Positions 15,297 to 64,000 of a stretch of 64,000 bases of DNA are shown here, in pieces; the first letter of the stretch is position 1, and every line of letters begins with the position of its first letter. The position numbers and the translations under genes are program-made. The DNA comes from an uncultured SAR86 cluster bacterium (GTDB taxonomy: Bacteria; Pseudomonadota; Gammaproteobacteria; Magnimaribacterales; D2472): the NCBI GenBank assembly GCA_902513515.1, contig CABXNE010000002.1:5023-69022 (forward strand), in the 5' to 3' direction. The notes under the pieces are model-generated. The model was not told where the DNA came from. It made no database searches and saw only the letters and a list, made by a program, of their open reading frames with translations.

Positions 15297-15311
15297 AAAA
15301 AGAGAAATATC

Positions 15312-16073: not shown

Positions 16074-16999
16074 AAAATTATCTTTTACTATGTGGAGGAG
16101 TTGGAGGAGCTAAACTTGCGTTAGGATTTAAAAATTCAATCGATGCAGATAACTTAACCATTGCTGTCAATACTGGAGATGATTTTACTCATCTTGACCT
16201 TAAAATTTGTCCCGATCTTGATACTGTGATGTATACCCTTGCTGGTGAATCAGATCTATCTAAGGGTTGGGGTAGAAAAGATGAATCATGGAATATGCTT
16301 TCAGCATTAGGCGCCATGAAGGGGGAAACTTGGTTTCAACTTGGAGACAAAGATTTAGCAACTCATATCCAAAGAACAAATTTAATTAAATCTGGCCAAT
16401 CTTTAACTCAAGCAACTCATAATTTATGTGAGTCATTTAATCTTCCAAAGTATATTTTTCCAATGAGCAATCAACCTGTTGAGACCTATATTCAAACAAA
16501 AAATAGGTTGATTTCATTTCAAGAGTATTTTGTAAAATTGAAATGCGAGCCACCAGTAACTGATTTTGTTTTTAAGGGGCTTGATAAAGCTGAATTTAAT
16601 CAAGATATAGATTTATCAAATTTTGATGAAATTATTGTCTGCCCATCTAATCCTTATGTAAGTATAAACCCAATGCTTCAGTTATCGTCTCTGAAAAATT
16701 ATTTACAGGATTTTCCAGAAAAAGTTAGTGTTATAAGTCCTATCGTTAATGCACAATCATTGAAAGGTCCGACTGCAAAAATGATGAATGAGCTTGGTTA
16801 TGAAGTAAGTGTTATTACAATTGCTAAGTTTTATAAAACTTATTCTAAAAGAATTTTTATAGATTCATTAGATTTGAATGAGTCTAGTAAGTTAAATGAA
16901 TTAGGATATGAAGTGCATAATAATAATTTAATCATGAATAGCACTAACTCAAAAAATGCACTCGCCAAGGCAATAATTCACCAGCTTGAATCAAAATAA
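16070..16999 (+). CDS. cofD: 2-phospho-L-lactate (LPPG):FO transferase CofD
   Basis: N-terminal LCGGVGGAKLALG plus NTGDDF...LDLKICPDLDTVMYTLAG match the CofD family. ATGA overlap with cofE. Confidence 0.9.
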   Translation: MKNYLLLCGGVGGAKLALGFKNSIDADNLTIAVNTGDDFTHLDLKICPDLDTVMYTLAGESDLSKGWGRKDESWNMLSALGAMKGETWFQLGDKDLATHIQRTNLIKSGQSLTQATHNLCESFNLPKYIFPMSNQPVETYIQTKNRLISFQEYFVKLKCEPPVTDFVFKGLDKAEFNQDIDLSNFDEIIVCPSNPYVSINPMLQLSSLKNYLQDFPEKVSVISPIVNAQSLKGPTAKMMNELGYEVSVITIAKFYKTYSKRIFIDSLDLNESSKLNELGYEVHNNNLIMNSTNSKNALAKAIIHQLESK

Positions 17000-17575
17000 A
17001 TGAATGTATCTGCATTTATACCGATTAAAAAATTTTCAACTTCAAAGAAGCGACTATCAAATATTGTTAGTTCATCTGAGCGAGAGAATCTAGCTGTCTT
17101 AATGGCAACGAAAACAATAGATACTTTATTTAATTCTAAGATATGCAACTCAATAACAGTTGTTACAAATGATAAAAATTTACATTTAAATAATTCAAAG
17201 TCATATTTTACAAAATCATTATTGAATGAAGGTTTAAATGAGGCTATAAATTCTCATGCTAAAAATGACATTATTTTAATCATGCATGCCGATCTTCCGA
17301 GAATTAATGAATTAGATCTTCAGGAGCTAACAAAAATTTTTGATGTCAAAAAAGTTAGCATTATTTCAGATCTTTTAAAGCAAGGAACAAATTGCTTAAT
17401 GTTTAATTCGTCGGTCAATTTCAAGCTTAAATTTGGTATAGATAGCTACAATCTTTTTATAAATGAATTCAAAAATAATGAAATAAATTATCAAGATGTT
17501 TGCATAGAAAGCCTTCAGGATGACCTTGACTCCGAGGAAGATTACTTCAAACTAATTAAATATATTGAGAGTTAG
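17000..17575 (+). CDS. cofC: phospho-lactate/phosphoenolpyruvate guanylyltransferase CofC/FbiD
   Basis: N-terminal AFIPIKKFSTSKKRLS (family pattern iPvK...aKsRL), about 190 aa, positioned between cofD and fbiC. Confidence 0.7.
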   Translation: MNVSAFIPIKKFSTSKKRLSNIVSSSERENLAVLMATKTIDTLFNSKICNSITVVTNDKNLHLNNSKSYFTKSLLNEGLNEAINSHAKNDIILIMHADLPRINELDLQELTKIFDVKKVSIISDLLKQGTNCLMFNSSVNFKLKFGIDSYNLFINEFKNNEINYQDVCIESLQDDLDSEEDYFKLIKYIES

Positions 17576-22752: not shown

Positions 22753-23883
22753 TTATTCTTCTGGAAGCAATGAATTTAATCGCTCAACTGAATCAAGATA
22801 TTCATTAATAATTCTATAAATTACATCTTTTACTGATTCAATTTGTTTTACTTGACCGATAACTTGTCCAGCAGCATTAAACGATACATCTTGTGTATTT
22901 CCAGAACCAGCATATATAGAAGTTCGTCTCATTGCATCAAAAGTAATCATGCCTTGAAGTGGCATTGGTAATGGATCTGGGTTTTCAGGATTTTCCCATG
23001 CTTCTGTCCATTTATTTTTTAACATTCGAGCAGGTTTTCCCGTCCAAGCCTTGCTTCTGATCGTATCTTCGCTTGTTGCATTTAAATAAGAGTCTTTTTC
23101 AGCAGGCTGAGCTGCAGCTTCTTCAACGGCAAGCCACAATGAACCACACCAAACTCCTTGAGCTCCTGTGGACATAGCTGCAGCCATTTGTCGGCCATTT
23201 CCGATTCCGCCAGCAGCAAGGACCGGCAAGCCATCTACAGCATCAACAATTTGAGGCCACAAAACAATACTTCCTATTTCACCAGTATGACCGCCACCTT
23301 CACCACCTTGTGCAATGATAAAATCAAGTCCTGCTTCTTTATGAGCTAAAGCCTGCTTAATTTTTCCGCATAAAGCACCAATTAAAACACCTTTATCTTG
23401 AATTTTTTTAATCATATCGGCAGGAGGAGTACCTAATGCGTTAGCAATTAATTTTACATTTGGGTGTTTTAAAGCTTCCTTTATTTGAGGTTCAGCTGTT
23501 GCCTCTGTCCATCCCAAGAGCCCTCCTTTTGGACCATTAGTTTCCGGTGCTTCTGGGACACCATTATCAGACAAGAGACCCTCAACAAATTCTCTATGAC
23601 CTTCAGGTATCATTTTTTGTAATGATTGTAATAATTTCTCAGGGTCTGTCTCATCCATACCTTCATATTTTTGTGGAATCACCGTATCTACGCCATACGG
23701 ATAATCTCCAATATGTTCATCGATCCAATCTAGCTCTTCTTTCAACTGCTCTGGTGAAAACCCAACAGCACCAAGCACGCCAATTCCACCAGCTTTACTA
23801 ACCGCAACAACAACATCTCTGCAATGAGTAAAAGCAAAAATAGGATATTCAATACCAAGTTTTTTACAAATATCAGTTTTCAT
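22753..23883 (-). CDS. nitronate monooxygenase / 2-nitropropane dioxygenase-like FMN oxidoreductase (NMO family)
   Basis: YPIFAFTHCRDV, GGIGVLGA, and IAQGGEGGGHTG are typical of the NMO/FabK-like TIM-barrel family. Confidence 0.85.
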   Translation of the reverse strand: MKTDICKKLGIEYPIFAFTHCRDVVVAVSKAGGIGVLGAVGFSPEQLKEELDWIDEHIGDYPYGVDTVIPQKYEGMDETDPEKLLQSLQKMIPEGHREFVEGLLSDNGVPEAPETNGPKGGLLGWTEATAEPQIKEALKHPNVKLIANALGTPPADMIKKIQDKGVLIGALCGKIKQALAHKEAGLDFIIAQGGEGGGHTGEIGSIVLWPQIVDAVDGLPVLAAGGIGNGRQMAAAMSTGAQGVWCGSLWLAVEEAAAQPAEKDSYLNATSEDTIRSKAWTGKPARMLKNKWTEAWENPENPDPLPMPLQGMITFDAMRRTSIYAGSGNTQDVSFNAAGQVIGQVKQIESVKDVIYRIINEYLDSVERLNSLLPEE

Positions 23884-24055: not shown

Positions 24056-25765
24056 ATGAAATGGGATTATGAATTTGATGTAGTCGTAATTGGTTCTGGA
24101 AACGGAGCCTTAACATCTGCTTTATGTAGTCACGATGGTGGTGCAAAAACTTTGGTTATTGAAAAAAGCACTCAATTTGGTGGAACCTCTGCTACCTCTG
24201 GTGGAGGTGTATGGATTCCTAATAACAGGTATGCAAAAGCTGAAAATGTTGATGACTCTAATCAAGATGCGAGAGACTATATAAATAGCGTTTCACCTGA
24301 AGGAAAAATTAAAGATGAGCTAGTGGAAACTTATCTTTCTGAAGGCCCTAAAATGATTGATTATCTTCATGAAAATTCACAAGTTAAGTATAGAAATTTA
24401 GCTCATTATCCAGACTACTTTCCAGATAATCCTGGTGGAAAAGCAGGGAATAGGTCCATGGAACCTGAGCCAATCAAAGGAACTGAACTTGGAGACGATC
24501 TTCAGAAACTCAGGGAACAGCATCCGCAAACCGCATTTACTATGGGACCAATCAATATGAATTTTACTCAAGTAGAAGGCCAGTTATTGTTAGGCGCACT
24601 TCCAGGGTGGAAATCTCTCTTTGCAAAACTATTCACTAAATATATTTTAGATATATCCATGAGGGTTAAATGGGGTTGGAAAGATAGAAGGTTGACTATG
24701 GGCAATGCAGGTGTGGCTCGATTAATTTTATCCCTCAAAGATAGAAATGTAGTTTTATGGACTGAAACTACTATGACTGATCTCATCGATGAAAATGGCT
24801 CAGTAATTGGTATTAAAGCTACTAAAAATAATATTGAGATAAACATTAAAGCAAATAAAGGTGTCATTCTTGCTTCTGGTGGATTTGAAAAAGATCAAAG
24901 TTTGAGAGAAAAATATTTACCTCAGCCTACTAATATAGAGTGGAGTGCTGCCAATATTTATAATACAGGCGATGCATTAAAAGCTGCTTTAAAATTAGGA
25001 GCTGATACTCATCAAATGGATACAGGTTGGTGGTCTACTGTTATGAAAGTACCAGGACAAGATAAAGGTTGGCTATCAATGGTAGATAAATCAATGCCTG
25101 GAAATTTTACCGTCAATAAAAATGGTGAAAGATTTTCAAATGAATCCCAAAATTATGTCAGCTTTGTAAATGATATGTTTGATAAGTATGCGGAGGGAAA
25201 TCCCTGTGCTCCATGTTATATGATTTTTGATAGCACATTTAGAAAAAATCGACCATGCGGACCTCTTCTTCAAGCATCTATGCAGCCTGATTCATCTGTT
25301 CCTAAGGATTGGTGGACACCATCTTTTTTATCAAAGGGTGAGACATTAGAGGAACTAGCTGAAGTTGCTGGCATTGATGTTGAAGGTCTTTTAGCAACAC
25401 AGGCAAAAGTTAATGAATATGCTGCATCAGGCAAAGACCTTGATCTTCAACGTGGTGATAGTGTTTATGATAGGTATTACGGCGATCCATCAGTTACACC
25501 AAATCCATGTCTTGCTCCTATAGAAACTGGACCCTTTTATTGTATGGTTCTATATCCTGGTGAAATGGGTACTGCGGGCGGTCTAGTAATAGATTCAAAT
25601 GCAAGAGTCATAAACAAAGAAGGTAAAGCGATACCAGGACTTTATGCGTGTGGAAATTGCTCAACAGCGTTGTTACCTACATATCCTGGCCCTGGCTCAA
25701 CTCTTGGTCCAGCCATGACTTTTGGTTACTTGGCTGCAAAACACATTACTGGTTCAAATTTTTAA
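24056..25765 (+). CDS. FAD-dependent 3-oxosteroid 1-dehydrogenase (KstD)-like flavoprotein (FAD_binding_2 family)
   Basis: N-terminal FDVVVIGSGNGALTSA...GGTSATSGG dinucleotide fold and C-terminal GLYACGNCS...YPGPGSTLGPAMTFGY, as in KstD/fumarate-reductase-type flavoproteins. Confidence 0.75.
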   Translation: MKWDYEFDVVVIGSGNGALTSALCSHDGGAKTLVIEKSTQFGGTSATSGGGVWIPNNRYAKAENVDDSNQDARDYINSVSPEGKIKDELVETYLSEGPKMIDYLHENSQVKYRNLAHYPDYFPDNPGGKAGNRSMEPEPIKGTELGDDLQKLREQHPQTAFTMGPINMNFTQVEGQLLLGALPGWKSLFAKLFTKYILDISMRVKWGWKDRRLTMGNAGVARLILSLKDRNVVLWTETTMTDLIDENGSVIGIKATKNNIEINIKANKGVILASGGFEKDQSLREKYLPQPTNIEWSAANIYNTGDALKAALKLGADTHQMDTGWWSTVMKVPGQDKGWLSMVDKSMPGNFTVNKNGERFSNESQNYVSFVNDMFDKYAEGNPCAPCYMIFDSTFRKNRPCGPLLQASMQPDSSVPKDWWTPSFLSKGETLEELAEVAGIDVEGLLATQAKVNEYAASGKDLDLQRGDSVYDRYYGDPSVTPNPCLAPIETGPFYCMVLYPGEMGTAGGLVIDSNARVINKEGKAIPGLYACGNCSTALLPTYPGPGSTLGPAMTFGYLAAKHITGSNF

Positions 25766-52966: not shown

Positions 52967-53398
52967 TTATTTCTTTCCCCACATTGGTAAAACTTGCATA
53001 ATCGTAATTGCAATTATGAATAAACCCTGAGGAAGTGAAGGTATTAAATTAAATGGTGCGCCAGGATTATTACTAGCAATTAATTCAGAACCGTAAGGTG
53101 AGATTAGTTCGCCAGATGCCTCTAATACTGCCATTCCATTAGCAACACCATTTGCATTCCATTCTGAAGCCCCAAAATTAATTAACCATCCATAGGCTAT
53201 AAAAAGAGAGAAAGTAGTACCAGCTATTTTCATTAGCAAAGGAGTATCAACATTGTTATAAATATTCTGACCAATTCTTAGGCCCACCCAGGATAGAAAT
53301 CCTAATGCTAAAAACCATGAAGCTTGACCACCTGAAGCCATCCATAGATGATCCCAAAGCTCTAATTCCGTGTAATTAACTGTCGCTGAAGATTCCAT
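52967..53398 (-). CDS. hypothetical 3-TM membrane protein, paralogue B of a tandem pair
   Basis: 143 aa with three hydrophobic segments. It shares ELELW, PLLMKI, GWLI, SGELISP, NPG and the C-terminal LPMWGKK with the upstream gene's ELEMW, PVLMKV, GWMV, SGTELSP, NPG and LPLWLKGEK. ATGA-type overlap at 53398. Confidence 0.6.
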   Translation of the reverse strand: MESSATVNYTELELWDHLWMASGGQASWFLALGFLSWVGLRIGQNIYNNVDTPLLMKIAGTTFSLFIAYGWLINFGASEWNANGVANGMAVLEASGELISPYGSELIASNNPGAPFNLIPSLPQGLFIIAITIMQVLPMWGKK

Positions 53399-53811
53399 TA
53401 TTTTTCTCCTTTAAGCCATAAGGGCAATATTGCAATCAATAGTCCTGAAATTAAATAGGCCATTCCAATCAGACCAGGATTTGACATGAATTCACCGCCA
53501 TACATTTCAACAAATTGACTTGCTAATGGGCTTAACTCAGTTCCAGATTCTTTTAGATCTGATAATGCAGTCGCTTGAACAACCCAGCTATTTAATGCTC
53601 TGGTTATTACCATCCAACCAAAAGCAAAACCTGATATAGCAAATACAGAAATAATTACTTTCATCAGCACAGGCGCATCATTTTCTCTAGCAACACTAGC
53701 AAATCTTGCTGCTATCCATATGCCTATGGTTACAGATAGAATCATTGTTGCGTTTGCGCCTCTGGAGTTTTGAAAAATATTCCACATTTCTAATTCCATA
53801 ATTTTCTCCAA
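53398..53811 (-). CDS. hypothetical 3-TM membrane protein, paralogue A of a tandem pair
   Basis: 137 aa, same architecture and motifs as the downstream paralogue. GGAG precedes the ATG. Confidence 0.6.
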   Translation of the reverse strand: MEKIMELEMWNIFQNSRGANATMILSVTIGIWIAARFASVARENDAPVLMKVIISVFAISGFAFGWMVITRALNSWVVQATALSDLKESGTELSPLASQFVEMYGGEFMSNPGLIGMAYLISGLLIAILPLWLKGEK

Positions 53812-53912: not shown

Positions 53913-54335
53913 TTAAATTGGTTCAAAAAAATAACTTATATATGAATTGCCATCTTGATCTTTTCTACCTAAAGCATCTTTAAATACTACTTTTACCCTC
54001 ATATCAAAAGATAAATTTTCAGGATTAGGTTCAACATTAATTAAATTACCTTTGATAGTTCCTCCATTATCTAGATCAACTATTGCTGATACATATGGGA
54101 CTTTAATGCCAGGGAATGATCTATGAACAATTGAATATGAATACAACTTTCCAGTATTAGATAGTCTAATGTCAGAAATACTATTAACTTCAAAACATTT
54201 AGCACAAGTCAGTCGTTTATCTATAAAAATTGCCGAACAAACATTGCACTTTTTACCAGACAAATAGTAATCACCTTGCTCATCTTTATTAATAAAAGAT
54301 GTGGCTCCATAAAAGTCAGTATTCTGATTGGACAT
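53913..54335 (-). CDS. DUF35 (Zn-ribbon + OB-fold) acyl-CoA-associated protein
   Basis: The four-Cys ribbon CNVCSAIFIDKRLTCAKC is followed by an OB-fold-like C-terminus (YSYSIVH...VSAIVDLD). 140 aa. Confidence 0.8.
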   Translation of the reverse strand: MSNQNTDFYGATSFINKDEQGDYYLSGKKCNVCSAIFIDKRLTCAKCFEVNSISDIRLSNTGKLYSYSIVHRSFPGIKVPYVSAIVDLDNGGTIKGNLINVEPNPENLSFDMRVKVVFKDALGRKDQDGNSYISYFFEPI

Positions 54336-54404
54336 ATTTGTTTTTATGAATAAGAATTAAGTATTAGTTAATTTTATGATAACTAATTAAAAGGGGGGCA
54401 ACAA

Positions 54405-54695
54405 ATGAAAGGTTATGTGCTTGGTTTGTTATACATGGACAATTGGGATTGGTATGAAAAATATTTTCCTGCGACTGCAAAATTAATTGAAGAACATGGC
54501 GGAAAATATCTTGCTTCAGGTGTAAAGCCAGAAATGAGAGAAGGCAATGAACAACCTTCAGCATATGTGCTTTTAGAATTTCCAGATCTTTTATCTGCTC
54601 AAAAATGGTATGAAGATCCAAAATATAAGCCTTTGATTGATTTGAGGAATTCAGGCGGAAGATCAGAAATTTTTATTATTCCTGGAGGTTTGTAA
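54405..54695 (+). CDS. DUF1330-domain protein
   Basis: 96 aa. The pattern MKGYVLG...YEKYFPATAKLIEEHGGKYLA...LEFPDLLSAQKWYEDPKYKPL is the DUF1330 signature arrangement. Confidence 0.8.
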   Translation: MKGYVLGLLYMDNWDWYEKYFPATAKLIEEHGGKYLASGVKPEMREGNEQPSAYVLLEFPDLLSAQKWYEDPKYKPLIDLRNSGGRSEIFIIPGGL

Positions 54696-54700
54696 AGCTT

Positions 54701-56314
54701 ATGGCTAAACCTAATAAAAATTTATCAGAATGGATAGATGTTCTAGATAACTCTGAATCTATGTCTATAACCCTTGGCGAACTTATAGAGACTACTGCGA
54801 AAAAATTTCCTGAGACTGAGGCATTAGTTTACTCAAATCAACCCGGAGTTGATGATATAAGGTGGACTTATAAAGATTTAGATGAAATGTCTACTAATCT
54901 AGCAAAAGCCTTTCTTGATGTTGGATTTAGTCCTGGTGATACTGTTGGTGTTTGGGGTCCGAATCATCCTGAGTGGATTCTTGCTGAATATGCATTGGCG
55001 AAGGCTGGTCTAAGAATTGTTACATTAAATCCCTTATATAAAGAACAAGAATTAATTTTTGCTTTAAATACAGTATCAGCTGTGGCTATAGTTCATGCTG
55101 AAGTAATTGGAGGAGTGAACAGTTCAGATTTGATTAATGTTATAAAGAATGAAATTCCATCTCTTAAATATAACTATACTTTTGATGAAGGCTTAAAAGA
55201 TCTTATTAAACAGGGTAAACAATCAAACTCTTTTTTACCAAAAGTAGATCCGAATGATATTTTTATGATCCAGTATACTTCTGGAACTACCGGTGTTCCA
55301 AAAGCCGCTCAGATGACTCATCAATCTTTAATCACATCCTCCAAAAATAGTCATGTTCGTTGGCAAATAACTGAAAATCAGAGAGTTTGCCATGGTTTTC
55401 CTTTGTTTCACATTGGTGGTTCAGCTTGTATGACGCTCGGGGCTGCAGCAACAGGGGCTGTTTCTTTGCCCTTATACATATTTAAACCAGATGTAACTTT
55501 AGATATTTTACAAAATGAAAATTGTTCTGTGTTCATAGGTGCACCTGTCTTATTAACAGCGATGCTAGAGGTTCCTCATTTCAAAGAATATGATTTGAGT
55601 TCACTGAAATGTTTAATAGTAGGAGGATCTAATCCACCACTTGAGCTTTTGAAGAAATTTTCAGAAGAGTTTGATGCAGATGTTATAAATGGCTATGGCA
55701 TGACAGAAACCTGCGGATTAACTTCTACAGCACTTCCGACTGACCCGCCCGAATTAAAAGCTATTGCAGGACTTGCTTTACCTGGAGTTTCCTTAAAAGT
55801 TGTAAATAAGAAAAATGAAGTTGTGAAAAATGATACTCCTGGTGAATTACTATATAAAGGCCCAGGACTCATGAAAGGCTATGGCAATTTACCTGATGGA
55901 AGCTCAGGAATAAATTCCGATGGTTGGTTTCCAACTGGAGATCTAGCTACTATGAATCAAGATGGATATATCAATATTGTTGGTAGAGCAAAAGAGATGA
56001 TCATAAGGGGCGGTGAAAATCTCTATCCAATAGAAATTGAAAATTACTTGCTTGAACACCCTGGGGTCTTAGAGGTAGCAGTGATTGGTCTGCCTGATAA
56101 AAAATATGATGAAGAATGTTGTGCAGTTGCTAGGGTTGATTCATCAGAGCTAAATAGTCCTGATGAATTAAAAGATTGGTGCAAAGAGAGAATATCGAGA
56201 TGGAAAGTTCCAAGATACATTTTCTTTGTCGACTCTTTTCCAGTAACTCCTTCAGGAAAAATTCAAAAATATAAATTACAAGAAAAATATATTCTTGACT
56301 TAAACCTAAATTAG
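54701..56314 (+). CDS. AMP-dependent acyl-CoA synthetase/ligase
   Basis: AMP-binding motif YTSGTTGVPKA, GYGMTE, TGDLA, and the C-terminal PSGKIQK. Confidence 0.9.
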   Translation: MAKPNKNLSEWIDVLDNSESMSITLGELIETTAKKFPETEALVYSNQPGVDDIRWTYKDLDEMSTNLAKAFLDVGFSPGDTVGVWGPNHPEWILAEYALAKAGLRIVTLNPLYKEQELIFALNTVSAVAIVHAEVIGGVNSSDLINVIKNEIPSLKYNYTFDEGLKDLIKQGKQSNSFLPKVDPNDIFMIQYTSGTTGVPKAAQMTHQSLITSSKNSHVRWQITENQRVCHGFPLFHIGGSACMTLGAAATGAVSLPLYIFKPDVTLDILQNENCSVFIGAPVLLTAMLEVPHFKEYDLSSLKCLIVGGSNPPLELLKKFSEEFDADVINGYGMTETCGLTSTALPTDPPELKAIAGLALPGVSLKVVNKKNEVVKNDTPGELLYKGPGLMKGYGNLPDGSSGINSDGWFPTGDLATMNQDGYINIVGRAKEMIIRGGENLYPIEIENYLLEHPGVLEVAVIGLPDKKYDEECCAVARVDSSELNSPDELKDWCKERISRWKVPRYIFFVDSFPVTPSGKIQKYKLQEKYILDLNLN

Positions 56315-56346
56315 TATTTTTTAACAAGCTGTTTATAATAAATTTT

Positions 56347-57141
56347 ATGGATTATTCAAAATATAAAGAACTCAAAGTAACTAAAGAAAATAGAATTTTA
56401 ACTATTACTATCAATCGTCCTGATGATATGAATGCTGTTAATGAACAGCTACATGCAGATTTTTCAACTATCTTTATTGATGCTGAATATGACGATGAAG
56501 TTGATATAGTGATTTTAACTGGGGCAGGTAAATCATTTTGTGCGGGTGGCGATTTAAAATGGTTGCTAGGAGTGCATGGTGACCCTGTAGCAACTGCATA
56601 TCATATAAACCATGATAGAAAGATTCAAAATGCTATGTTGGATATGGAAAAACCAATTATCGCAAAAGTAAACGGTCCTGCTGTTGGTTTAGGATGTTCT
56701 TTGGCTCTTTTTTGTGATTTTGTATACGCCACTCCAAGATCAAAATTTGCAGATCCTCATGTTTCTGTTGGACTAGTTGCTGGTGATGGTGGTTGTGTTA
56801 TTTGGCCTCAACTTATAGGTTTCGCACGAGCTAAGAAATATCTTCTAACAGGTGAAATGATCAAAGCAGATGATGCTCTTAATATGGGCTTGATAGCAGA
56901 AGTATTTGAAGAAGATAAAATTGACCAAGAGGTCCAAGCTTTGGCTGAAAAACTACGTGATGGAGCTAAATATTCTATTCGCTGGACCAAAACCTCAATA
57001 AATGCAGGTTTGAAAGTTATGGCTAATTCTATAATTGACCGAGCAGCAGCTTTTGAAAATGTTACTCAGTTAATGGAAGATCATAAAATTGCTCTTGAAG
57101 CTTTTGCAAAAAAAGAAACCCCTAAATTTAAACAAAAGTAG
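56347..57141 (+). CDS. enoyl-CoA hydratase/isomerase (crotonase family)
   Basis: ITINRPDDMNA, the oxyanion-hole context GAGKSFCAGGDL, and NGPAVGLGCSLAL. Confidence 0.9.
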   Translation: MDYSKYKELKVTKENRILTITINRPDDMNAVNEQLHADFSTIFIDAEYDDEVDIVILTGAGKSFCAGGDLKWLLGVHGDPVATAYHINHDRKIQNAMLDMEKPIIAKVNGPAVGLGCSLALFCDFVYATPRSKFADPHVSVGLVAGDGGCVIWPQLIGFARAKKYLLTGEMIKADDALNMGLIAEVFEEDKIDQEVQALAEKLRDGAKYSIRWTKTSINAGLKVMANSIIDRAAAFENVTQLMEDHKIALEAFAKKETPKFKQK

Positions 57142-57154
57142 TTAAGGAGACTTC

Positions 57155-57859
57155 TTGAAAAAATTTCTAATTATTACCGGTGGCAGTAGCGGAATAGGCT
57201 TTGCCGCTGCAAAACTTTTTCAAGACAATGGATTTAATATTATTAATCTTTCAAGATCAAAAATTAATCTTGATGATGCTGTTCATATTGAGGTTGATTT
57301 ATCTAGATCCAATTGGCAAGAATCTTTAGAATCAATATTTCAAGAAACATTATCCTCCGCTGATCAAATTTGCTTGGTTCACAATGCTAGTAAAATGCAA
57401 AGTGATAATGTTGAATCGACTGATCCAGATAGTTTAAGAGAGGTTTTAGAGGTAAATTTAGTAGGACCCTCTATCCTTAATAAGATCACTATTCCTTATA
57501 TGAAAAAAGGTTCGTCTATCTTGTATGTTGGCTCAACTCTTTCTGAAAAAGCTGTTCCACAAATGTCATCCTATGTTATGACTAAACACGGAATGATAGG
57601 TTTAATGAGAAGCACATGCCAAGATTTATTTGGAAGATTTATTCATACTGCTTGTATATGCCCAGGCGCAACAGAAACTGAAATGTTGGTCGAATATGTT
57701 CAAGGTAATCAAGAAGCTTTAAAAATAATGGCTTCAACATTAAGTGAAAATAGATTAATTTCATCAGAAGAAATAGCTTCAACCATATTCTTTTGTGCTA
57801 ATAATTCTGTTATCAATGGTTCAGTAATACATGCAAATCTAGGCATTCAAGAATTATGA
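57155..57859 (+). CDS. short-chain dehydrogenase/reductase (SDR)
   Basis: ITGGSSGIG and YVMTKHG (YxxxK). TTG start preceded by AAGGAG. Confidence 0.85.
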   Translation: MKKFLIITGGSSGIGFAAAKLFQDNGFNIINLSRSKINLDDAVHIEVDLSRSNWQESLESIFQETLSSADQICLVHNASKMQSDNVESTDPDSLREVLEVNLVGPSILNKITIPYMKKGSSILYVGSTLSEKAVPQMSSYVMTKHGMIGLMRSTCQDLFGRFIHTACICPGATETEMLVEYVQGNQEALKIMASTLSENRLISSEEIASTIFFCANNSVINGSVIHANLGIQEL

Positions 57860-59022
57860 ATGCATTTCAAGAACCTGAGCATGTATCAATGTTAAGAAAT
57901 ACTCTTAGGCAATTTATTGATAAAGAAATGCCTAGAGAAAAAGTTAATCAATGGGACAAAGATGATCATTTTCCAAGAGATGTTTTCGATAAATTATGTA
58001 AATTAGGGGTAACCTCTCTAACTGTTCCTGTTGAGTACGGTGGCTCTGGAAGAGATATGATGGCAACTATTGCAACTATAGAGGAACTTTGCACCAGGAG
58101 CCTTGGTATAGCGTCTGGCTATATTTTTTGTGCATGTTATGCAGGCTTAAATTTATCTGAAGTTGCAAGCGAGGAACAAAAGAAAAAATTTCTTCCTGAA
58201 GTTGCGAATGGAAATCTTTTATTTTCATATGGAATAAGTGAACCAGACGTTGGAGCAGATGTTGCTAGTGTTAAAACCAAAGCTATACGTGATGGTGATG
58301 AGCTAATAATTAATGGCACCAAACGTTGGTGTTCTGGACCCAATATCACAGATTATATTTATACAATTGTCAGATCAGGTCCTGAGGAAGATCGATATAG
58401 AAATTTATCTTTAGTTCTAATACCACCAACAGCAGATGGAATAATAATAGAACCACAGCAAACTCTTGGTCAAAAAGGCGTAGGAGGAACATGTGATGTA
58501 ACTTTTAACGATGTAAGAATTCCTTTTGAGAATGTAATTGGGGGTGAAGATGGTTGGAATGATGGTTGGAGTAAAATTGTAAGTACTGGCTTGGATGTTG
58601 AAAAAATTGAGGTCTCAGCCATGGCTTTAGGTATAGCAAGAGCCGCAGTTGATGATGCTTGGCAATATTCACAAGAAAGAATTCAATTTGGTAAACCTAT
58701 TTGTCACAATCAATCCATAAGGCATATGCTTGCGGAGGTTAAAACTAAGCTAGAAGCTTGTAGATTAATGACTTATCAAGGAGCATGGTTAGCAGATCAG
58801 AATGTAATAGCAACTGTAGAAATGTCTATGTCAAAATTATTTGTTACTGAAACTGCTCTAGATATAGTTTTAACATGTCAGAGAATTTTAGGGGCTTATG
58901 GGTATGTCAGGGAATTTGATATGGAAAGATATGTTCGTGACATGCTAGCTATGCCTATATTAGGTGGGTCCTCTGCAATCCAAAAAAATAATATTGCCAA
59001 TAGGTTAAATTTACCTAAATAG
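57856..59022 (+). CDS. acyl-CoA dehydrogenase
   Basis: ACAD N/M/C-domain pattern (GISEPDVGADVAS, KRWCSG). The usual MCAD-type YEG catalytic Glu position reads LGG. A Glu sits at the IVD/LCAD-type position (GLDVEK). Confidence 0.9.
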   Translation: MNAFQEPEHVSMLRNTLRQFIDKEMPREKVNQWDKDDHFPRDVFDKLCKLGVTSLTVPVEYGGSGRDMMATIATIEELCTRSLGIASGYIFCACYAGLNLSEVASEEQKKKFLPEVANGNLLFSYGISEPDVGADVASVKTKAIRDGDELIINGTKRWCSGPNITDYIYTIVRSGPEEDRYRNLSLVLIPPTADGIIIEPQQTLGQKGVGGTCDVTFNDVRIPFENVIGGEDGWNDGWSKIVSTGLDVEKIEVSAMALGIARAAVDDAWQYSQERIQFGKPICHNQSIRHMLAEVKTKLEACRLMTYQGAWLADQNVIATVEMSMSKLFVTETALDIVLTCQRILGAYGYVREFDMERYVRDMLAMPILGGSSAIQKNNIANRLNLPK

Positions 59023-59028
59023 TTATCT

Positions 59029-60177
59029 ATGCTGAAAGATAAAACAGCAATTGTAGGGATAGGCCAAACAGAATTTTCAAAATCAATTGATTCAACTGAG
59101 CTCAACCTAGCATGCAAAGCTATAAAAAATGCCTTAGATGATGCTGGTATTAGTCCTGACCAAGTTGATGCATTAGGCAGCTTTACTTACGAAGAAACCC
59201 CTGAATTTGAAATTGCTAGAAATTTAGGTTTTGGTAATTTAACTTATTGGAGTCAGGCACCATATGGAGGAGGGGCAAGTTGTGCAGCAATTGGGCAAGT
59301 TGCTATGGCTATTGCATCAGGAATAGCAAATGTAGGAGTTGTATGGAGATCCCGCAAAAGGGGAGATCCAAGCTCTAGGATGTGGTCTCATACTGATGAA
59401 AGAATTTTTGATCATTGGAAATGGTCTAGACCATCGGGTTTAGTTAGGCCTGTTGATGAATCTTCCATGCTTATTCGTCGTTATATGCATCAGTATGATT
59501 ATTCTAGAGAGAGCCTGGGAGCTGTTGCTATCTCTTTAAGAAAATATGCTAATTCAAACGATGAGGCACTTATGCAACATAAATCCTTAAATTTAGACGA
59601 TTACATGGAAGCACGTATGATTTCTGATCCCTTGTGTTTATTTGATAATTGTTTAGAAAGTGATGGCGCTATTGCAATTATTATTACTAATATGGATATA
59701 GCAAAAAAACTACAGAACAAACCAGCAATTATTCATGCATATTCACAAGGAATGAACAAAGAACATCAATTAATGACCCATTATCATGGAGCTGATCCTC
59801 TCGAAAGCTCTTCTTATGTAACAGCTACAAATTTATGGAATTTATCTGATCATTCACCGAAGGAAATTGATGTTGCACAAATATATGATGCATTCTCCCC
59901 AATGATTCCATTTTCACTTGAGGCTTATAATTTTTGTTCAAAGGGAGAGGCTTTAAAATTAATTAATGAAGGGCTAATTAATATTGATGGCGAACTTCCA
60001 GTTAATACATCTGGAGGGAGCCTTTCTGAGGTCTATTTACATGGAATGAATTTGGTTACAGAAGCAGTTAGACAAATTCGTGGCTCAGCAACCTCGCAGG
60101 TAAATAATGCAAAATTAGCACTTGTTACAACCTGTGATGCTACACCTAACGCTGCTATATTATTAAAAGGTGAATAA
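59029..60177 (+). CDS. thiolase-like lipid-transfer protein (SCP-x/Ltp type)
   Basis: MLKDKTAIVGIGQTEFSK start, and the C-terminal NTSGGSLSEVYLHGMN...VRQIRG typical of Ltp/SCP-x thiolase-like proteins. A DUF35 gene follows immediately. Confidence 0.85.
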   Translation: MLKDKTAIVGIGQTEFSKSIDSTELNLACKAIKNALDDAGISPDQVDALGSFTYEETPEFEIARNLGFGNLTYWSQAPYGGGASCAAIGQVAMAIASGIANVGVVWRSRKRGDPSSRMWSHTDERIFDHWKWSRPSGLVRPVDESSMLIRRYMHQYDYSRESLGAVAISLRKYANSNDEALMQHKSLNLDDYMEARMISDPLCLFDNCLESDGAIAIIITNMDIAKKLQNKPAIIHAYSQGMNKEHQLMTHYHGADPLESSSYVTATNLWNLSDHSPKEIDVAQIYDAFSPMIPFSLEAYNFCSKGEALKLINEGLINIDGELPVNTSGGSLSEVYLHGMNLVTEAVRQIRGSATSQVNNAKLALVTTCDATPNAAILLKGE

Positions 60178-60594
60178 ATGATTGAAACTATACCAATTCC
60201 TGGCATTGAAGATTTTGATAAAGTTTATTGGGAAAATTGTTCTAAAAATAAATTAACCATTCAGCATTGTGGTGATTGCAATGAACCTCGATTTCCACCT
60301 CGACATATGTGTCCTATCTGCCAATCTATCTCTCATGATTGGAAAGAGGACTCAGGAGATGCGGTGTTATGGTCTTTTGTTATACCCAGACCTCCATTGC
60401 TACCTGTATTTGAAAAACAATCTCCTTATGCAGTAGGTTTAGTAGAGCTTGTAGAATATAAAAATATAAGAATTATTGGTCAAATTCAAACAAATTCAAA
60501 CTTAGATTCAATTAAGATAGGTGATAAATTAAAAATTGATTTTAAAAAAATTAATAATAAAATATCTTTACCTTATTGGGTAAAAAATAATTAA
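60178..60594 (+). CDS. DUF35 (Zn-ribbon + OB-fold) protein, partner of the Ltp-type thiolase-like protein
   Basis: CGDCNEPRFPPRHMCPIC ribbon plus OB-fold (YAVGLVEL). The ATG abuts the ltp-like stop (TAAATG). Confidence 0.85.
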   Translation: MIETIPIPGIEDFDKVYWENCSKNKLTIQHCGDCNEPRFPPRHMCPICQSISHDWKEDSGDAVLWSFVIPRPPLLPVFEKQSPYAVGLVELVEYKNIRIIGQIQTNSNLDSIKIGDKLKIDFKKINNKISLPYWVKNN

Positions 60595-60624
60595 TATTTA
60601 TTAACATCAAAGGGGAGAGATGAT

Positions 60625-61818
60625 ATGAAAATTAATTACAATCCTTATTCTCAAGACTTTTGGGATAATTCTTGGTCTATTTATAAAGACCTTAGAGACA
60701 ATGATCCAGTTCATTGCATGGAAGATTTTGGAGGTGCATGGGCATTAAGCAGATTTGAAGATATATGGAATGCCCATCTAGGGTCTTACAAAGATTACAC
60801 ATCTGTTGAAGGAACATCGCCACCTCCTTTATTGCTAGGTGATGATTCGGGTCCGGGTCATATTTCCATTCCAACAAATGATGGTAGAGATCATCGGGAT
60901 TACAGAAATACAATTTCTGACAGATACACACAATCTTCTATTTCAGAATTAGAAGAAAAAATTCGCCAACTAACTATTGACGAGCTAAAGCCATATTTAA
61001 AAAAGGGTAAGGTAGATGTTCATGAGATAGCTAGAAAAGTTTCTTTATTCACAATCACTGACATGATTGGTCTGGATAGAGAGGTTGCTCTAAAAGCACG
61101 GGAGCTTATAGATATATTTTATGAAAGAGATCCAGATATAATGGGCGCAACTCCAAGAGGTCAAGAAGCTTTTGGTCAATGCATGGGACTGATGCTTCAA
61201 TTGGCTTCAGAATGGAGGAAAGACACACCTCCCTCTCCTACACACATAAACACATGGATAACAAAACAAGTAAGAGAAGGCTTGTGGATGTCAGATGAGC
61301 AAATTATGGGCAACACAAGTATGTTGATAATTACTGGCGCTGATACGGTTCCTTATACGATTGCAAACTTGTTTTATTATCTTGATCAAAATCCAGATCA
61401 ACAAGAGATTTTAAAAAATGATCTCTCATTAATACCTGCAGCTTTTGAAGAGACAGTTAGGTTTGATCATCCTACTAACATTTTAGGTAGAAAACTAAAT
61501 AAAGATATGGAATTACATGGTAAAAAGATGAAAAAAGGTGATTCTGTAATTTATTTGTATCAATCGGCTGGAAGAGATGAGAGAGAATTCGATAATCCTG
61601 ATAAATTTAATATTACCAGACCCACTCCCAAGCGAACCATCAGCTTTGGGCATGGTCCACATAAATGTTTAGGTCAGCACTTAGCAAGATTAGAAGGTAG
61701 GGTCATTTTAGAAGAAATTTTTAAAGCCATTCCTGAATACTCACTACAACATAATGAAATGGTAAGAACATTTGGTGAATTTTTACAGGGCTATAGAAAT
61801 ATGCCGATTAAGTTTTAA
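60625..61818 (+). CDS. cytochrome P450
   Basis: Haem-thiolate loop FGHGPHKCLGQHLA, ExxR (EETVRF), and I-helix-like ITGADTV. Confidence 0.95.
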   Translation: MKINYNPYSQDFWDNSWSIYKDLRDNDPVHCMEDFGGAWALSRFEDIWNAHLGSYKDYTSVEGTSPPPLLLGDDSGPGHISIPTNDGRDHRDYRNTISDRYTQSSISELEEKIRQLTIDELKPYLKKGKVDVHEIARKVSLFTITDMIGLDREVALKARELIDIFYERDPDIMGATPRGQEAFGQCMGLMLQLASEWRKDTPPSPTHINTWITKQVREGLWMSDEQIMGNTSMLIITGADTVPYTIANLFYYLDQNPDQQEILKNDLSLIPAAFEETVRFDHPTNILGRKLNKDMELHGKKMKKGDSVIYLYQSAGRDEREFDNPDKFNITRPTPKRTISFGHGPHKCLGQHLARLEGRVILEEIFKAIPEYSLQHNEMVRTFGEFLQGYRNMPIKF

Positions 61819-61832
61819 AGAAGTGGTATCAA

Positions 61833-62318
61833 CTAAGATTTGTCGGTTGTCACTTCATCTATGTAAGATTTCCATTTTTTAGAATCTATCTTCCATGGAG
61901 AATTTATTTTTTTTTCAGTTAAATTAACTCCTGCAATAATTTTTGCAGATGAAACAATTTGATCAGATATTTTTATATCTAAATTGATATTTAAGAATGA
62001 TAATTCATCTGAAACCTTATCTTCACTAATTACATATCCATGGAATTCTAATGTTTCGTTTGGACATATAGGTTTTTTAATCTTGAAACTAACTTTGCCA
62101 ATCCTTGTAGCATCTCCATAAAGATCAGTAACATACTTTATTACCAAACCATTTAATGTGTAATTATTCATAATTATGTTTGGTAAATTGCCTTTATTAA
62201 TAGCCCAGTCTTGATCTGAATGAAGCGGGGCCCAATCCCGACTATAAATAGCACCAGCTTGTATATTTTTTACTGATGTAACAAATTTACTAATAGGTAA
62301 AGCAATTTTAGAACTCAT
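61833..62318 (-). CDS. MaoC-like (R)-hydratase hotdog-fold protein (ChsH1-like partner)
   Basis: YSRDWAPLHSDQDWA is the MaoC dehydratase D-x-N/A-P-x-H-x-D motif context. 161 aa, with a 4-nt overlap with the upstream hotdog gene. Confidence 0.8.
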   Translation of the reverse strand: MSSKIALPISKFVTSVKNIQAGAIYSRDWAPLHSDQDWAINKGNLPNIIMNNYTLNGLVIKYVTDLYGDATRIGKVSFKIKKPICPNETLEFHGYVISEDKVSDELSFLNINLDIKISDQIVSSAKIIAGVNLTEKKINSPWKIDSKKWKSYIDEVTTDKS

Positions 62319-62818
62319 TTTTTATAACCTAAAAAATGCATATTTTGTTTTCCAACAATAATTTCCTTTTGATTAAAATAGGTAACTTCTATAACCCAAT
62401 ATCTTCCATTTCCAAGTTTAGTTGTTACTGGGTCAGTAATACTTAATAATTTTTGATTAGAACTAATTTCATCACCATTTTTAATAGGCTCATAGTATTC
62501 GATTTCAACTTCTGTAACTATTCCAAGTGGTAAATTTAAAACTTCTTTTAAATGAAAATGAAGTTGCATAGGCAGGACTTTTTTTCGATTAGGATGCCAT
62601 TCAAAATCATGAACCCATGAAGGCAGTAATGCTGGGTGGGCTATTAACTCGTCAGTATGTTTAATGGCTTCTGATTCATTCCAATAAATAGGATTACTAT
62701 CTTCAATAGCTGAACAAAAGTTCTGCCAAAGCCCTTTTTGAACCAAAATAGGGCTCGAATCTTCAAATGATATTTTGCCAATTAGTTTTGTTATTTCTTT
62801 AGGCAATTCAGCTTGCAT
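62315..62818 (-). CDS. MaoC N-terminal-type hotdog-fold protein (ChsH2-like core, no DUF35 domain)
   Basis: FCSAIEDSNPIYWNESEA resembles the FAS1-DH/MaoC-N-terminal family. 167 aa, directly between an ACAD and the MaoC-like gene. Confidence 0.7.
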   Translation of the reverse strand: MQAELPKEITKLIGKISFEDSSPILVQKGLWQNFCSAIEDSNPIYWNESEAIKHTDELIAHPALLPSWVHDFEWHPNRKKVLPMQLHFHLKEVLNLPLGIVTEVEIEYYEPIKNGDEISSNQKLLSITDPVTTKLGNGRYWVIEVTYFNQKEIIVGKQNMHFLGYKK

Positions 62819-62824
62819 AATTAT

Positions 62825-64000
62825 TTACAAAGGAAGATTTAAAGATTTTTTAGCTATCGTATTTTTTTGAATTTCTGTTGTTCCAGCTCCAATAGTATCT
62901 ACCAATGTACTTCGATATGACCATTCCCATTTTCCATTAGCATGTGAATCTTGACACTCCTTTCTAAAAAGACCTTCTCTACCCAATATATCCATTGCCT
63001 CATTAGCTAATTTCTGATGAAGTTTTGTACTGAATAGTTTAAAAACAGCTGCTTCTGTTTGAGGCACTTCATCTTGAATGGCAACAGATAGAACTTTTCT
63101 TTGGAGAACTTTGGCTTTTTGGACATCTGCATAAAGATATATAATTTTCTTGCGTATTTCAGGGATTTTATTCAATGGAGTTCCATCTCTTGATAATTGA
63201 CTGATAAGTTCAACCAGCTCTTTAAATTTTTGCTCTAAAGGTGCAATGGTATAGAAAGTAAATCTTTCGTAATTTAATGCTTCACAAATATATTTCCAAC
63301 CGTTATTAATATCTCCAATAACATATTCATCAGCAATGAAAACATCAGTTAAAAAAACACTATTTGTTGCATGCTCTCCAACAGTCTCAATTGGATGTAC
63401 TTCAATACCTGGATCATCCATTTTGACTAAAAACACACTTATTCCTTTATGCTTAGGGGCTTCTGGATCAGTTCTTGCGGCCAACCAATACCAATCTGCG
63501 ACATGAGCAGATGAAGTCCAAATTTTTTGACCATTAATCAACCAGCCTCCATATTTTTTTTCAGCTTTTAATTTTAAAGAGGCTAAATCTGACCCAGCAC
63601 TTGGTTCGCTATACCCTAATGCAAAATCAATTTCACCAGCTAAAATTTGAGGTAAAAATTCATCTTTTATTTTATTAGATCCATGATGAATTATTGTTTG
63701 TCCTATTGATCCAACACCTTTACCTGGAGAAGGCGCGCCAACTCTGCATAATTCTTCATTTAAAATATAATCATAAATTCCAGGCTTTTCTTGACCGCCA
63801 TATTCTTTTGGCCATGACATGCCTAGATACCCTTTTGATGAAAGTATTTTCATAAATTCTCTTCTAGCAGGGCTGTCTATTTTGGTTTGAGCATCTGCTT
63901 CTCTATTTGGAGCAAATACATCGTCTGCATTAGATTTCTTCTTTTCTTCTTTGATGAAGTCTTTAACTTCTTCAATAAACAATTCTTCTTCTTTAGTAAA
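62825..64000 (-). CDS. acyl-CoA dehydrogenase (5' end probably just beyond the window edge)
   Basis: ACAD pattern (GYSEPSAGSDLAS, QKIWTS, GAGTTEIQKN). The frame stays open to position 64000 (..FTKEEEELFIEEV), so the Met at 63982 may be internal. A Glu sits at the IVD/LCAD-type position (LNYER). Confidence 0.9.
   Translation of the reverse strand, partial: FTKEEELFIEEVKDFIKEEKKKSNADDVFAPNREADAQTKIDSPARREFMKILSSKGYLGMSWPKEYGGQEKPGIYDYILNEELCRVGAPSPGKGVGSIGQTIIHHGSNKIKDEFLPQILAGEIDFALGYSEPSAGSDLASLKLKAEKKYGGWLINGQKIWTSSAHVADWYWLAARTDPEAPKHKGISVFLVKMDDPGIEVHPIETVGEHATNSVFLTDVFIADEYVIGDINNGWKYICEALNYERFTFYTIAPLEQKFKELVELISQLSRDGTPLNKIPEIRKKIIYLYADVQKAKVLQRKVLSVAIQDEVPQTEAAVFKLFSTKLHQKLANEAMDILGREGLFRKECQDSHANGKWEWSYRSTLVDTIGAGTTEIQKNTIAKKSLNLPL

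Follow-up and report, generated by a model that had tools for sequence, protein, structure and literature searches.

In the igr operon of Mycobacterium tuberculosis, as in the Ltp2-ChsH2 system of T. curvata and in ORF40-44 of C. testosteroni, an acyl-CoA dehydrogenase (ACAD), a hydratase built of the hotdog-fold proteins ChsH1 and ChsH2, and the aldolase Ltp2 act together in removing the C17 propionyl unit of the steroid side chain. The aldolase in these systems needs a DUF35 partner, which is fused to the C-terminus of ChsH2. The same enzyme trio, with the same expected chemistry, is encoded at positions 53913-64000 of the window described here, a stretch of 64,000 nucleotides from an uncultured SAR86 cluster bacterium (contig CABXNE010000002.1). 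A sequence-only reading of this DNA had taken the genes for an igr-like side-chain degradation module with a split-off DUF35. Comparison of the whole locus points instead, with moderate confidence, to a streamlined and rearranged version of the 4,5-seco pathway for phenolic A-ring steroids, of the type encoded by the edc/oec clusters of estrogen-degrading bacteria.

The edc pathway has been established by genetics and assays of EdcA, EdcB and EdcC in N. tardaugens, in which the cluster is dispensable for growth on cholate (PMC7793797). The gene set comprises edcA (a P450 with estrone 4-hydroxylase activity in vitro), a chsH2-like hydratase, a lipid-transfer protein, enoyl-CoA hydratases (ECHs), a BadI-like hydrolase, a thiolase, a protein resembling HMG-CoA synthase (HMGCS), a hydroxyacyl-CoA dehydrogenase, an ACAD, edcB (4-hydroxyestrone 4,5-dioxygenase), a VOC protein, edcC (an IOR-family enzyme), an ACAD followed by two MaoC hydratases, and a TonB receptor (PMC7793797). 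Estrone is hydroxylated at C4 by EdcA, its ring is opened by meta-cleavage by EdcB, and EdcC decarboxylates the product to 4-norestrogen-5(10)-en-3-oyl-CoA (PMC7793797), from which beta-oxidation-like enzymes, including an 'aldolase', lead to the ring ketone HIP (PMC7793797; PMC12507874). According to a review, EdcC is specific to estrogen-degrading Pseudomonadota (PMC12507874).

A related solution is found in the aed system of Rhodococcus sp. B50, in which, likewise, a P450 and an extradiol dioxygenase open the pathway and an Ltp2-like aldolase with a DUF35 partner serves the last step to HIP; it differs in using AedGHJ instead of an IOR-type enzyme and in the fusion of DUF35 to MaoC in AedL, the neighbour of the aldolase AedK (PMC8913865). 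Knockout of the Ltp2-like AedK leads to accumulation of the C15 acid 2,3,4-trinorestrogenic acid, and the enzyme is described as removing C1 and C10 by 'aldolytic beta-oxidation' to yield HIP (PMC8913865).

The SAR86 origin of the window, which has a GC content of about 34 %, is apparent from protein identities of 83-97 % to single-cell and metagenome-assembled genomes of this group, in line with the streamlined marine gammaproteobacterium that had been proposed from the letters alone. Eight related loci were recovered, L001-L007 being contigs of SAR86-cluster or uncultured gammaproteobacterial single-cell or metagenome-assembled genomes, with ACAD2 (see below) 83-97 % identical to its counterparts. 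Each of these seven contigs spans a different part of a common gene order: SCPx thiolase, IOR-family protein, VOC protein, dioxygenase, two ECHs and ACAD3; then SnoaL, ACAD2 and two hotdogs; then P450, DUF35, Ltp, ACAD1, a short-chain dehydrogenase/reductase (SDR), ECH, ligase and DUF1330; and lastly a second DUF35 (DUF35b). Positions 53913-64000 are the left two-thirds of this catabolic locus of about 31 kb, which is conserved in SAR86.

The locus continues past the window end, as seen in contig L004, in which a SnoaL_4 gene precedes ACAD2 and, divergently from both, ACAD3, two crotonases (ECHb and ECHc), the dioxygenase, the VOC protein, the IOR-family protein and the SCPx thiolase are encoded. 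The dioxygenase (330 amino acids, L004 5795-6787) is a type I extradiol enzyme of the HsaC/BphC family with HsaC as its best PDB match (2zi8, 3e-48), and its relatives share contigs with the relatives of Ltp. It is accompanied by a small VOC protein of 138 amino acids (L004 5401-5817). The IOR-family protein is of the EdcC type, is 1242 amino acids long and scores 1545 bits against NCBIfam PRK13030 (cut-off 816); it stands next to the dioxygenase in contigs L002, L003, L004, L006 and L007. The SCPx thiolase keeps its catalytic Cys and is 33 % identical to the thiolase of the reference clusters. Identity of the dioxygenase as HsaC or BphC proper was considered and dropped, the scores lying below the NCBIfam cut-offs. 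In the JGI annotation, relatives of the SAR86 dioxygenase carry the HsaC name '3,4-dihydroxy-9,10-secoandrosta-1,3,5(10)-triene-9,17-dione 4,5-dioxygenase', so that automated calls would book the locus under the 9,10-seco pathway.

The SAR86 locus contains the gene families of the estrogen clusters of Novosphingobium (Caenibius) tardaugens, Sphingomonas sp. KC8 (cluster II) and Altererythrobacter/Croceicoccus estronivorus MH-B5, namely a P450, an extradiol dioxygenase, a small VOC protein, an EdcC-type IOR, Ltp and DUF35, two MaoC hotdogs behind an ACAD, at least two crotonases, an SDR and a thiolase, at 31-64 % identity to the proteins of MH-B5, Spongiibacter and Dasania. The identities to these reference clusters were determined by tblastn, the MH-B5 locus (L010, JRQQ01000001.1) being the cluster of Fig. 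2B in PMC7793797. The lipid-transfer protein is 62 % identical in MH-B5 and 62-64 % in Spongiibacter and Dasania, and the IOR protein 55 % in both sets. ACAD2 is 49 % identical in MH-B5 and 60-62 % identical to the ACAD next to TetR in the Spongiibacter and Dasania clusters. The corresponding pairs of figures are 50 and 51 % for ECHb and 36 and 41 % for ACAD3; for the DUF35 next to Ltp (DUF35a), the identity to the stand-alone counterpart is 41 % in MH-B5 and 36 % in Spongiibacter. Among the hotdogs, the 167-residue MaoC_N-type protein is 31 % identical to a 180-residue hotdog of MH-B5, the other shows 24 % in that cluster, and the 161-residue MaoC protein is 34 % identical to Spongiibacter MaoC165. 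For five proteins the figures refer to Spongiibacter and Dasania only: dioxygenase 46 %, VOC protein 41-42 % (for the Spongiibacter pair of dioxygenase and VOC protein, 46 % and 42 %), ECHc 42 %, P450 45 %, and SDR 44-46 % (SDR236/237, which adjoin the VOC and Ltp genes there). As a scale, EdcB and OecC of proven estrogen degraders are 52 % identical, and EdcC and KC8_05315 62 % (PMC7793797).

The agreement extends to the surroundings of the relatives. The loci of Ltp relatives carry one or two ECHs, a MaoC of 155 amino acids, a DUF35 of about 150 amino acids, the extradiol dioxygenase, Ltp, ACADs and two more hotdogs, and independent searches with Ltp and with the P450 both led, outside SAR86, to nearest relatives in edc-type clusters. 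Compared with those clusters, the SAR86 order is reshuffled, with DUF35 following Ltp and not the 155-residue MaoC, and DUF1330, the ligase, the plus-strand ECH, ACAD1, SnoaL and the second DUF35 are extra.

Ltp (59029-60177, plus strand) is a thiolase-fold protein that passes the NCBIfam model PRK07855 'lipid-transfer protein' with 478.8 bits (cut-off 469). Its best solved relative is the T. curvata steroid aldolase Ltp2 (TcLtp2; PDB 6ok1_A, 1e-79), with Sal (9myr_A, 1e-26), archaeal thiolase (6esq, 3e-23) and BbsB (7pxp, 4e-19) well behind. In alignment with TcLtp2 and SCPx thiolases, Ltp is devoid of both thiolase cysteines, the nucleophile and the acid/base: the nucleophile position reads GGG, with Gly in place of Cys, and YDAF, which is shared by all 120 close homologues, is found where thiolases have HDCF. 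The NxCATG nucleophile Cys, HDCF and GH are all retained by the SCPx thiolases encoded in these loci. Equivalents of Tyr294 and Tyr344 of TcLtp2 are kept in all 120 close homologues of Ltp, the latter as the Tyr of an EVYLHG segment, and the oxyanion-hole residue His296 is Ala in Ltp and in all 120 (residue roles according to PMC12329534). Since Ltp keeps the Tyr/Tyr pair and lacks both cysteines, it is probably an Ltp2-type retro-aldolase rather than a thiolase, as is suggested by the same dyad and the same loss in TcLtp2. The chemistry that had been anticipated for this locus, namely dehydrogenation, hydration onto a ring carbon and Ltp2-type retro-aldol cleavage, is likely to be right.

These residues also bear on the idea that Ltp and DUF35a form a thiolytic or condensing complex unrelated to steroids, like the archaeal and Bbs-type thiolase-DUF35 complexes. 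A stand-alone DUF35 beside a thiolase-fold protein is typical of such complexes, weak matches to 6esq, 7pxp and BbsA/BbsB were obtained, and DUF35b with the Cys-bearing SCPx thiolase could be a pair of this kind. Such a role for the module is nevertheless very improbable given the absence of both catalytic cysteines, the score of Ltp against Ltp2 (1e-79, compared with 3e-23 for the archaeal and 4e-19 for the Bbs protein), and neighbours that are steroid-type ACADs and hotdogs. The pairing of an HMGCS-like/DUF35 protein with a thiolase was not found in the SAR86 locus, which has no HMGCS-like gene. A thiolase/HMGCS-type biosynthetic complex for Ltp and DUF35a was accordingly set aside, as the catalytic cysteines are absent. 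The phylogenetic check proposed with the sequence-only reading likewise places the nearest relatives in estrogen systems, not in archaeal or aromatic side-chain ones, and the steroid link that it had drawn was thus upheld.

The same relatives do not support the igr-type assignment. The closest non-SAR86 relatives of Ltp (60-67 % identity, among the matches listed) belong to sphingomonads and marine gammaproteobacteria and include Croceicoccus (Altererythrobacter) estronivorus and Spongiibacter marinus. The edc-type Ltp proteins form a tight group, as a search of 1.84 billion representatives yielded one full-length protein at 59 % identity and the next full-length ones at 43 % or less. In a rough neighbour-joining tree, the SAR86 Ltp groups with the MH-B5, Spongiibacter and P0361 proteins, and TcLtp2 falls in a separate YDHF clade, the members of which are 57-70 % identical to it. 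Judged by its 37 % identity to TcLtp2 (blastp), its YDAF in place of YDHF and its separate clade in the tree, the SAR86 Ltp is outside the canonical Ltp2 clade, within which the Comamonas and M. tuberculosis proteins are 61-64 % identical (PMC12502768). YDAF was also considered as a signature of the edc clade and discarded, the third residue of the motif varying (A, H, C, N, G) across 116 diverse representatives, among which YDAF recurs in other clades.

Under an igr-like reading, the module would split the final propionyl unit off the C17 side chain of a sterol or bile acid, with the P450 as a CYP125-like terminal oxidase and the ligase, ECH, SDR and ACAD1 serving earlier rounds of beta-oxidation. 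In its favour are the Tyr/Tyr aldolase of the Ltp2 type, the DUF35, the ChsH1/ChsH2-like pair, the ACAD resembling ChsE4 and Tcur3483, and the order ACAD, ChsH2-like hotdog, ChsH1-like hotdog, which had been rightly noted as matching igr; the scores of the P450 resemble those expected of CYP125-ancestor and CYP153 omega-hydroxylase relatives, and the SAR86-specific ligase, ECH, SDR and ACAD1 set resembles a generic beta-oxidation cycle. Furthermore, SAR86 homologues of fadE26/27, fadE34, cyp125 and baiB have been interpreted as side-chain degradation genes (Freel et al. 2024). However, all of the nearest relatives examined belong to edc-type clusters, where they adjoin an extradiol dioxygenase and an IOR, SAR86 keeps both of these in the same locus, whose context is thus A-ring cleavage rather than side-chain degradation, and Ltp is less similar to TcLtp2 than true Ltp2 orthologues are to each other. 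As the orthologues of Ltp, ACAD2, the SDR, the hotdogs, DUF35 and the P450 are found in edc-type clusters devoted to rings A and B, the igr assignment is rejected; a C17 side-chain role is considered unlikely.

The DUF35a protein (60178-60594, plus strand, 138 amino acids; Pfam zf-ChsH2 and OB_ChsH2_C), composed of a Cys4 Zn ribbon and an OB fold, is encoded directly behind Ltp, its ATG abutting the Ltp stop codon, as had been observed before. It matches the DUF35 docked on Sal (9myr_B, 3e-14) and that docked on Ltp2 (6ok1_B, 6e-14) about equally, and is the predicted docking partner of Ltp. In the proteobacterial Shy-Sal system of bile-acid C5 side-chain degradation (PDB 9myr), a thiolase-fold aldolase is likewise docked on DUF35, and ShyDUF35 and ChsH2DUF35 are equally good matches for DUF35a. 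The two systems differ in detail, as Sal has YDCY, whose Cys is catalytic, and carries Gln where TcLtp2 has Tyr344, in contrast to YDAF and Tyr in the SAR86 Ltp, and the Shy ribbon is Cys3His rather than Cys4. With respect to igr-type systems, the partner is separate here, and the ChsH2-like hotdog of 167 amino acids carries no DUF35 domain according to Pfam.

The separation of DUF35 had been regarded as the special feature of the locus, but DUF35 is also a separate gene of about 150 amino acids in the MH-B5 and Spongiibacter clusters, where it adjoins the 155-residue MaoC; in SAR86, DUF35a is placed behind Ltp and the 155-residue MaoC is gone or was never acquired. A stand-alone DUF35 is one of several ordinary architectures and is normal in this clade, and in Comamonas a separately expressed DUF35 supports aldolase activity (PMC12502768). 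Three Ltp-like proteins of 533-574 amino acids (P0371, P0372, P0386) have DUF35 fused to the N-terminus of the thiolase fold, and an HMGCS-like protein with a C-terminal DUF35 (Zn ribbon and OB fold) is encoded in L010 (14749-17535), L011 (1104-3865) and L012 (3297-6045). In the sphingomonad and Dasania edc-like clusters, this HMGCS-like fusion adjoins a Cys-bearing thiolase, which recalls the archaeal thiolase/HMGCS/DUF35 complex. Because free, N-terminally fused, HMGCS-fused and hydratase-fused forms all exist, a split DUF35 does not distinguish one system from another. The range of arrangements, in which the DUF35 of an Ltp-DUF35 aldolase is either free or joined to the hydratase, the aldolase or an HMGCS-like protein, may be useful in steroid aldolase engineering.

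The second DUF35 protein, DUF35b (53913-54335, 140 amino acids; Pfam OB_ChsH2_C, 9e-17), was present as listed earlier and lies on the minus strand, which had been left unstated. It has a four-Cys ribbon and an OB fold, matches NCBIfam BbsA weakly, and is conserved in contigs L002 and L004. Neither a homologue of it in the reference edc loci nor any similarity to DUF35a was found by BLAST; as a guess, it may pair with the SCPx thiolase encoded at the opposite end of the locus.

The hydratase is encoded on the minus strand by two genes that overlap by 4 nt, both downstream of ACAD2. The first protein (61833-62318, 161 amino acids; Pfam MaoC_dehydratas) aligns with ChsH1 (PDB 4w78_B/4wnb_B, 7e-7) and retains the D-x4-H motif; it is the predicted ChsH1-like catalytic subunit. 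The second (62315-62818, 167 amino acids; MaoC_N/FAS1_DH type, Pfam FAS1_DH_region 6e-8) aligns weakly with the N-domain of ChsH2 (4w78_A, 2e-3) and is the putative non-catalytic partner.

ACAD2 (62825-64000, minus strand) is cut by the window edge, its true start (MNFN...) lying 4 codons past base 64000, which accounts for the lack of any exact match to the truncated protein. It is most similar to alpha-type subunits of steroid ACADs (Tcur3483, 2e-69; ChsE4, 2e-57). The Glu of its LNYER motif aligns with Glu247 of ChsE4 (PDB 4x28_A), which we take to be the catalytic base, and the position of the Glu in medium-chain ACADs is Ala/Gly in the alignment of ACAD2 and ChsE4. The earlier remark on ACAD glutamates is therefore borne out for ACAD2; for ACAD1, the LDVEK motif named with it is present in the sequence. 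Regarding a partner of ACAD2, the homologues of ACAD2 and ACAD3 are adjacent in MH-B5, and the divergently encoded ACAD3 is the candidate, its matches to Tcur3481 and ChsE5 being no better than those to generic ACADs. ACAD1 (57856-59022, plus strand) is an ACAD of the generic homotetramer type (Pfam; PDB FadE3, 4iv6, 1e-65), 29 % identical to ACAD385 of MH-B5.

The P450 (60625-61818, plus strand; Pfam p450) has its nearest non-SAR86 relatives, at 42-47 % identity among the matches listed, in edc-like clusters of Dasania marina and GCA_048268145, and by this position it is a candidate for the EdcA (estrone 4-hydroxylase) slot. Against PDB it is generic, with CYP153-type enzymes and CYP125MRCA both at about 1e-42 and no specific family. 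Membership in CYP125 was considered and not adopted, since CYP153 and the CYP125 ancestor score equally and no NCBIfam match passes. The SDR (57155-57859, plus strand; Pfam adh_short), an orthologue of the edc-like cluster SDR by similarity, is a candidate hydroxyacyl-CoA dehydrogenase.

The order of steps that we infer from this gene content would run as follows. The P450 would hydroxylate the phenolic A ring to a catechol, the extradiol dioxygenase encoded beyond the window would open the ring by meta-cleavage, and the EdcC-type IOR, also beyond the window, would carry out the oxidative decarboxylation of the resulting 2-oxoacid and the formation of the CoA thioester in one step. ACADs (ACAD1), crotonases, the SDR and the Cys-bearing SCPx thiolase may then shorten the chain, with a crotonase-family hydrolase opening ring B. 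ACAD2, probably with ACAD3, would introduce a double bond next to the ring, the two-subunit MaoC hydratase would place a hydroxyl group on the ring carbon, and Ltp with DUF35a would cleave the product by a retro-aldol reaction to acetyl-CoA and the ring ketone HIP. The last three steps correspond to the ChsE1E2/ChsH1H2/Ltp2 chemistry of igr, here presumably applied to the remnant of rings A and B, as genetics has shown for AedK in Rhodococcus.

A ligase, an ECH, ACAD1 and DUF1330 are additions of the SAR86 locus. The AMP-dependent acyl-CoA ligase (54701-56314, plus strand; Pfam AMP-binding, 5e-83) scores 441 bits against NCBIfam PRK12583 and 313 bits against the FadD3 family, both below cut-off; identification as FadD3 was abandoned for this reason (cut-off 657). 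It may serve to activate or reactivate a free acid intermediate or a product such as HIP. The DUF1330 gene (54405-54695, plus strand; Pfam DUF1330, 9e-22) is conserved in SAR86 loci, and neither it nor the ligase had a homologue in the reference edc loci. The crotonase-family ECH (56347-57141, plus strand; Pfam ECH_1, 7e-51) is only about 28 % identical to the ECHs of the reference clusters.

Although the substrate had been called indeterminable from sequence, the gene context limits it to a compound that resembles a steroid with a phenolic or aromatic A ring. Instead of a vertebrate estrogen, the same pathway logic could in principle serve another marine substrate in which a phenolic ring is joined to alicyclic ones, for instance a sterol with an aromatic A ring or a phenolic terpenoid. 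This would fit the wide distribution of the cluster in marine gammaproteobacteria (Spongiibacter, Dasania, Haliea, Halioglobus and SAR86) that are not known as estrogen degraders, the addition of a ligase, ECH, ACAD1 and DUF1330 and the loss of several reference genes in SAR86, and the divergence of the P450, the first and specificity-determining enzyme, which is the least conserved. In addition, estrogen levels in the open ocean are, by our expectation, very low. On the other hand, with 55-64 % identity to their counterparts in an estrogen degrader, the core enzymes fall within the range between proven clusters, no alternative substrate has been shown for the edc cluster type, and EdcC-type genes are reported as restricted to estrogen degraders (PMC12507874). 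A different substrate class is therefore a minority possibility, less probable than a phenolic A-ring steroid.

Several further observations, together with the low levels of estrogen expected in the open ocean, weigh against the phenolic-steroid assignment. The dioxygenase, VOC protein, IOR, ECHb, ECHc, ACAD3 and SCPx thiolase lie outside the window, their presence in this genome being deduced from synteny in other SAR86 genomes. The link to estrogen clusters runs via MH-B5, an estrogen degrader in which the cluster is only annotated; N. tardaugens EdcA, EdcB and EdcC, KC8 OecC and Rhodococcus AedK did not appear by name among the matches listed in the Ltp, P450 and dioxygenase searches. The P450 is only 42-47 % identical to its cluster relatives and resembles generic omega-hydroxylases (CYP153, CYP125). 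HMGCS-like, CoA-transferase and third MaoC homologues were not found in the window, L002 or L004, nor TetR and the TonB receptor in the window, unlike in the reference clusters. No genes of HIP degradation were seen in the window, and fadD3, hsa, kshA and kstD have been reported from only a few SAR86 genera (Freel et al. 2024).

Bergstrand et al. (2016) had already predicted that SAR86 catabolises steroids, and catechol 2,3-dioxygenases and ferredoxin oxidoreductases of SAR86 were listed separately by Freel et al. (2024). A literature search, itself incomplete, found no work linking SAR86 or marine gammaproteobacteria to an edc-type pathway. The present comparison corrects an easy mis-annotation, as matches to Ltp2, ChsH and FadE26-like proteins and 'HsaC' names suggest cholesterol side-chain or 9,10-seco catabolism and the whole locus points to the 4,5-seco estrogen-type route instead. 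The locus provides SAR86, which now has a cultured representative, with a substrate hypothesis that can be tested and with 20 defined genes for expression. It is a more tentative proposal, less probable than not, that a conserved phenolic-steroid pathway of SAR86 acts on trace estrogens or unrecognised marine natural products by means of a minimal Ltp and a stand-alone DUF35, with no tethered hydratase. If this proposal is true, the 'cyp125', 'fadE26/27' and perhaps 'catechol 2,3-dioxygenase' and 'ferredoxin oxidoreductase' genes of surveys would belong to one SAR86 pathway, and estrogen-like compounds would have a large biological sink in the open ocean. Should the function of the locus be confirmed, a very large marine population would also be detected by edcC-based markers of estrogen degradation.

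The physical layout of the locus agrees with the earlier inventory, all 12 named genes being reproduced by the open reading frame listing and Pfam. From DUF1330 to the P450 (54405-61818), eight plus-strand genes form a tightly packed operon with intergenic gaps of -4 to 32 nt, on which the minus-strand MaoC, MaoC_N and ACAD2 genes converge. At the DNA level, the last 2.2 kb of the window (61834-64000) are 96 % identical to L004, in contrast to 83 % over 53913-61832; towards L005, Ltp and the P450 are 96-97 % identical and the hotdogs 61-66 %. This mosaic relatedness suggests a recombination breakpoint between the two operons at about 61820-61835, the convergent P450/MaoC junction.

Next to DUF35b and in the same orientation, two paralogous small membrane proteins of 143 and 137 amino acids (28 % identical, with no Pfam family) are encoded at 52967-53811 on the minus strand. 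The 137-residue protein also follows DUF35b in L002, and in L004 a cyclase gene takes this position instead.

Elsewhere in the window, a second catabolic island extends over 6116-27448. It encodes a KshA_C-type Rieske oxygenase (6116-7081), an amidohydrolase_2 protein, SDRs, a sulfotransferase, an aldehyde dehydrogenase, a DUF1295 protein, an NMO-family protein (22753-23883) and a KstD-family flavoprotein (24056-25765), and ends with SDR, SnoaL_4 and SnoaL_2 genes. The flavoprotein is 41 % identical to the product of a gene beside the MH-B5 estrogen cluster; its identification as KstD itself was not retained, the NCBIfam score being 526 against a cut-off of 788. At 14664-19994, the window carries a complete-looking set for coenzyme F420 biosynthesis, consisting of an F420-dependent NADP oxidoreductase, cofE, cofD, cofC and a fused cofG/H radical-SAM protein of 809 amino acids.

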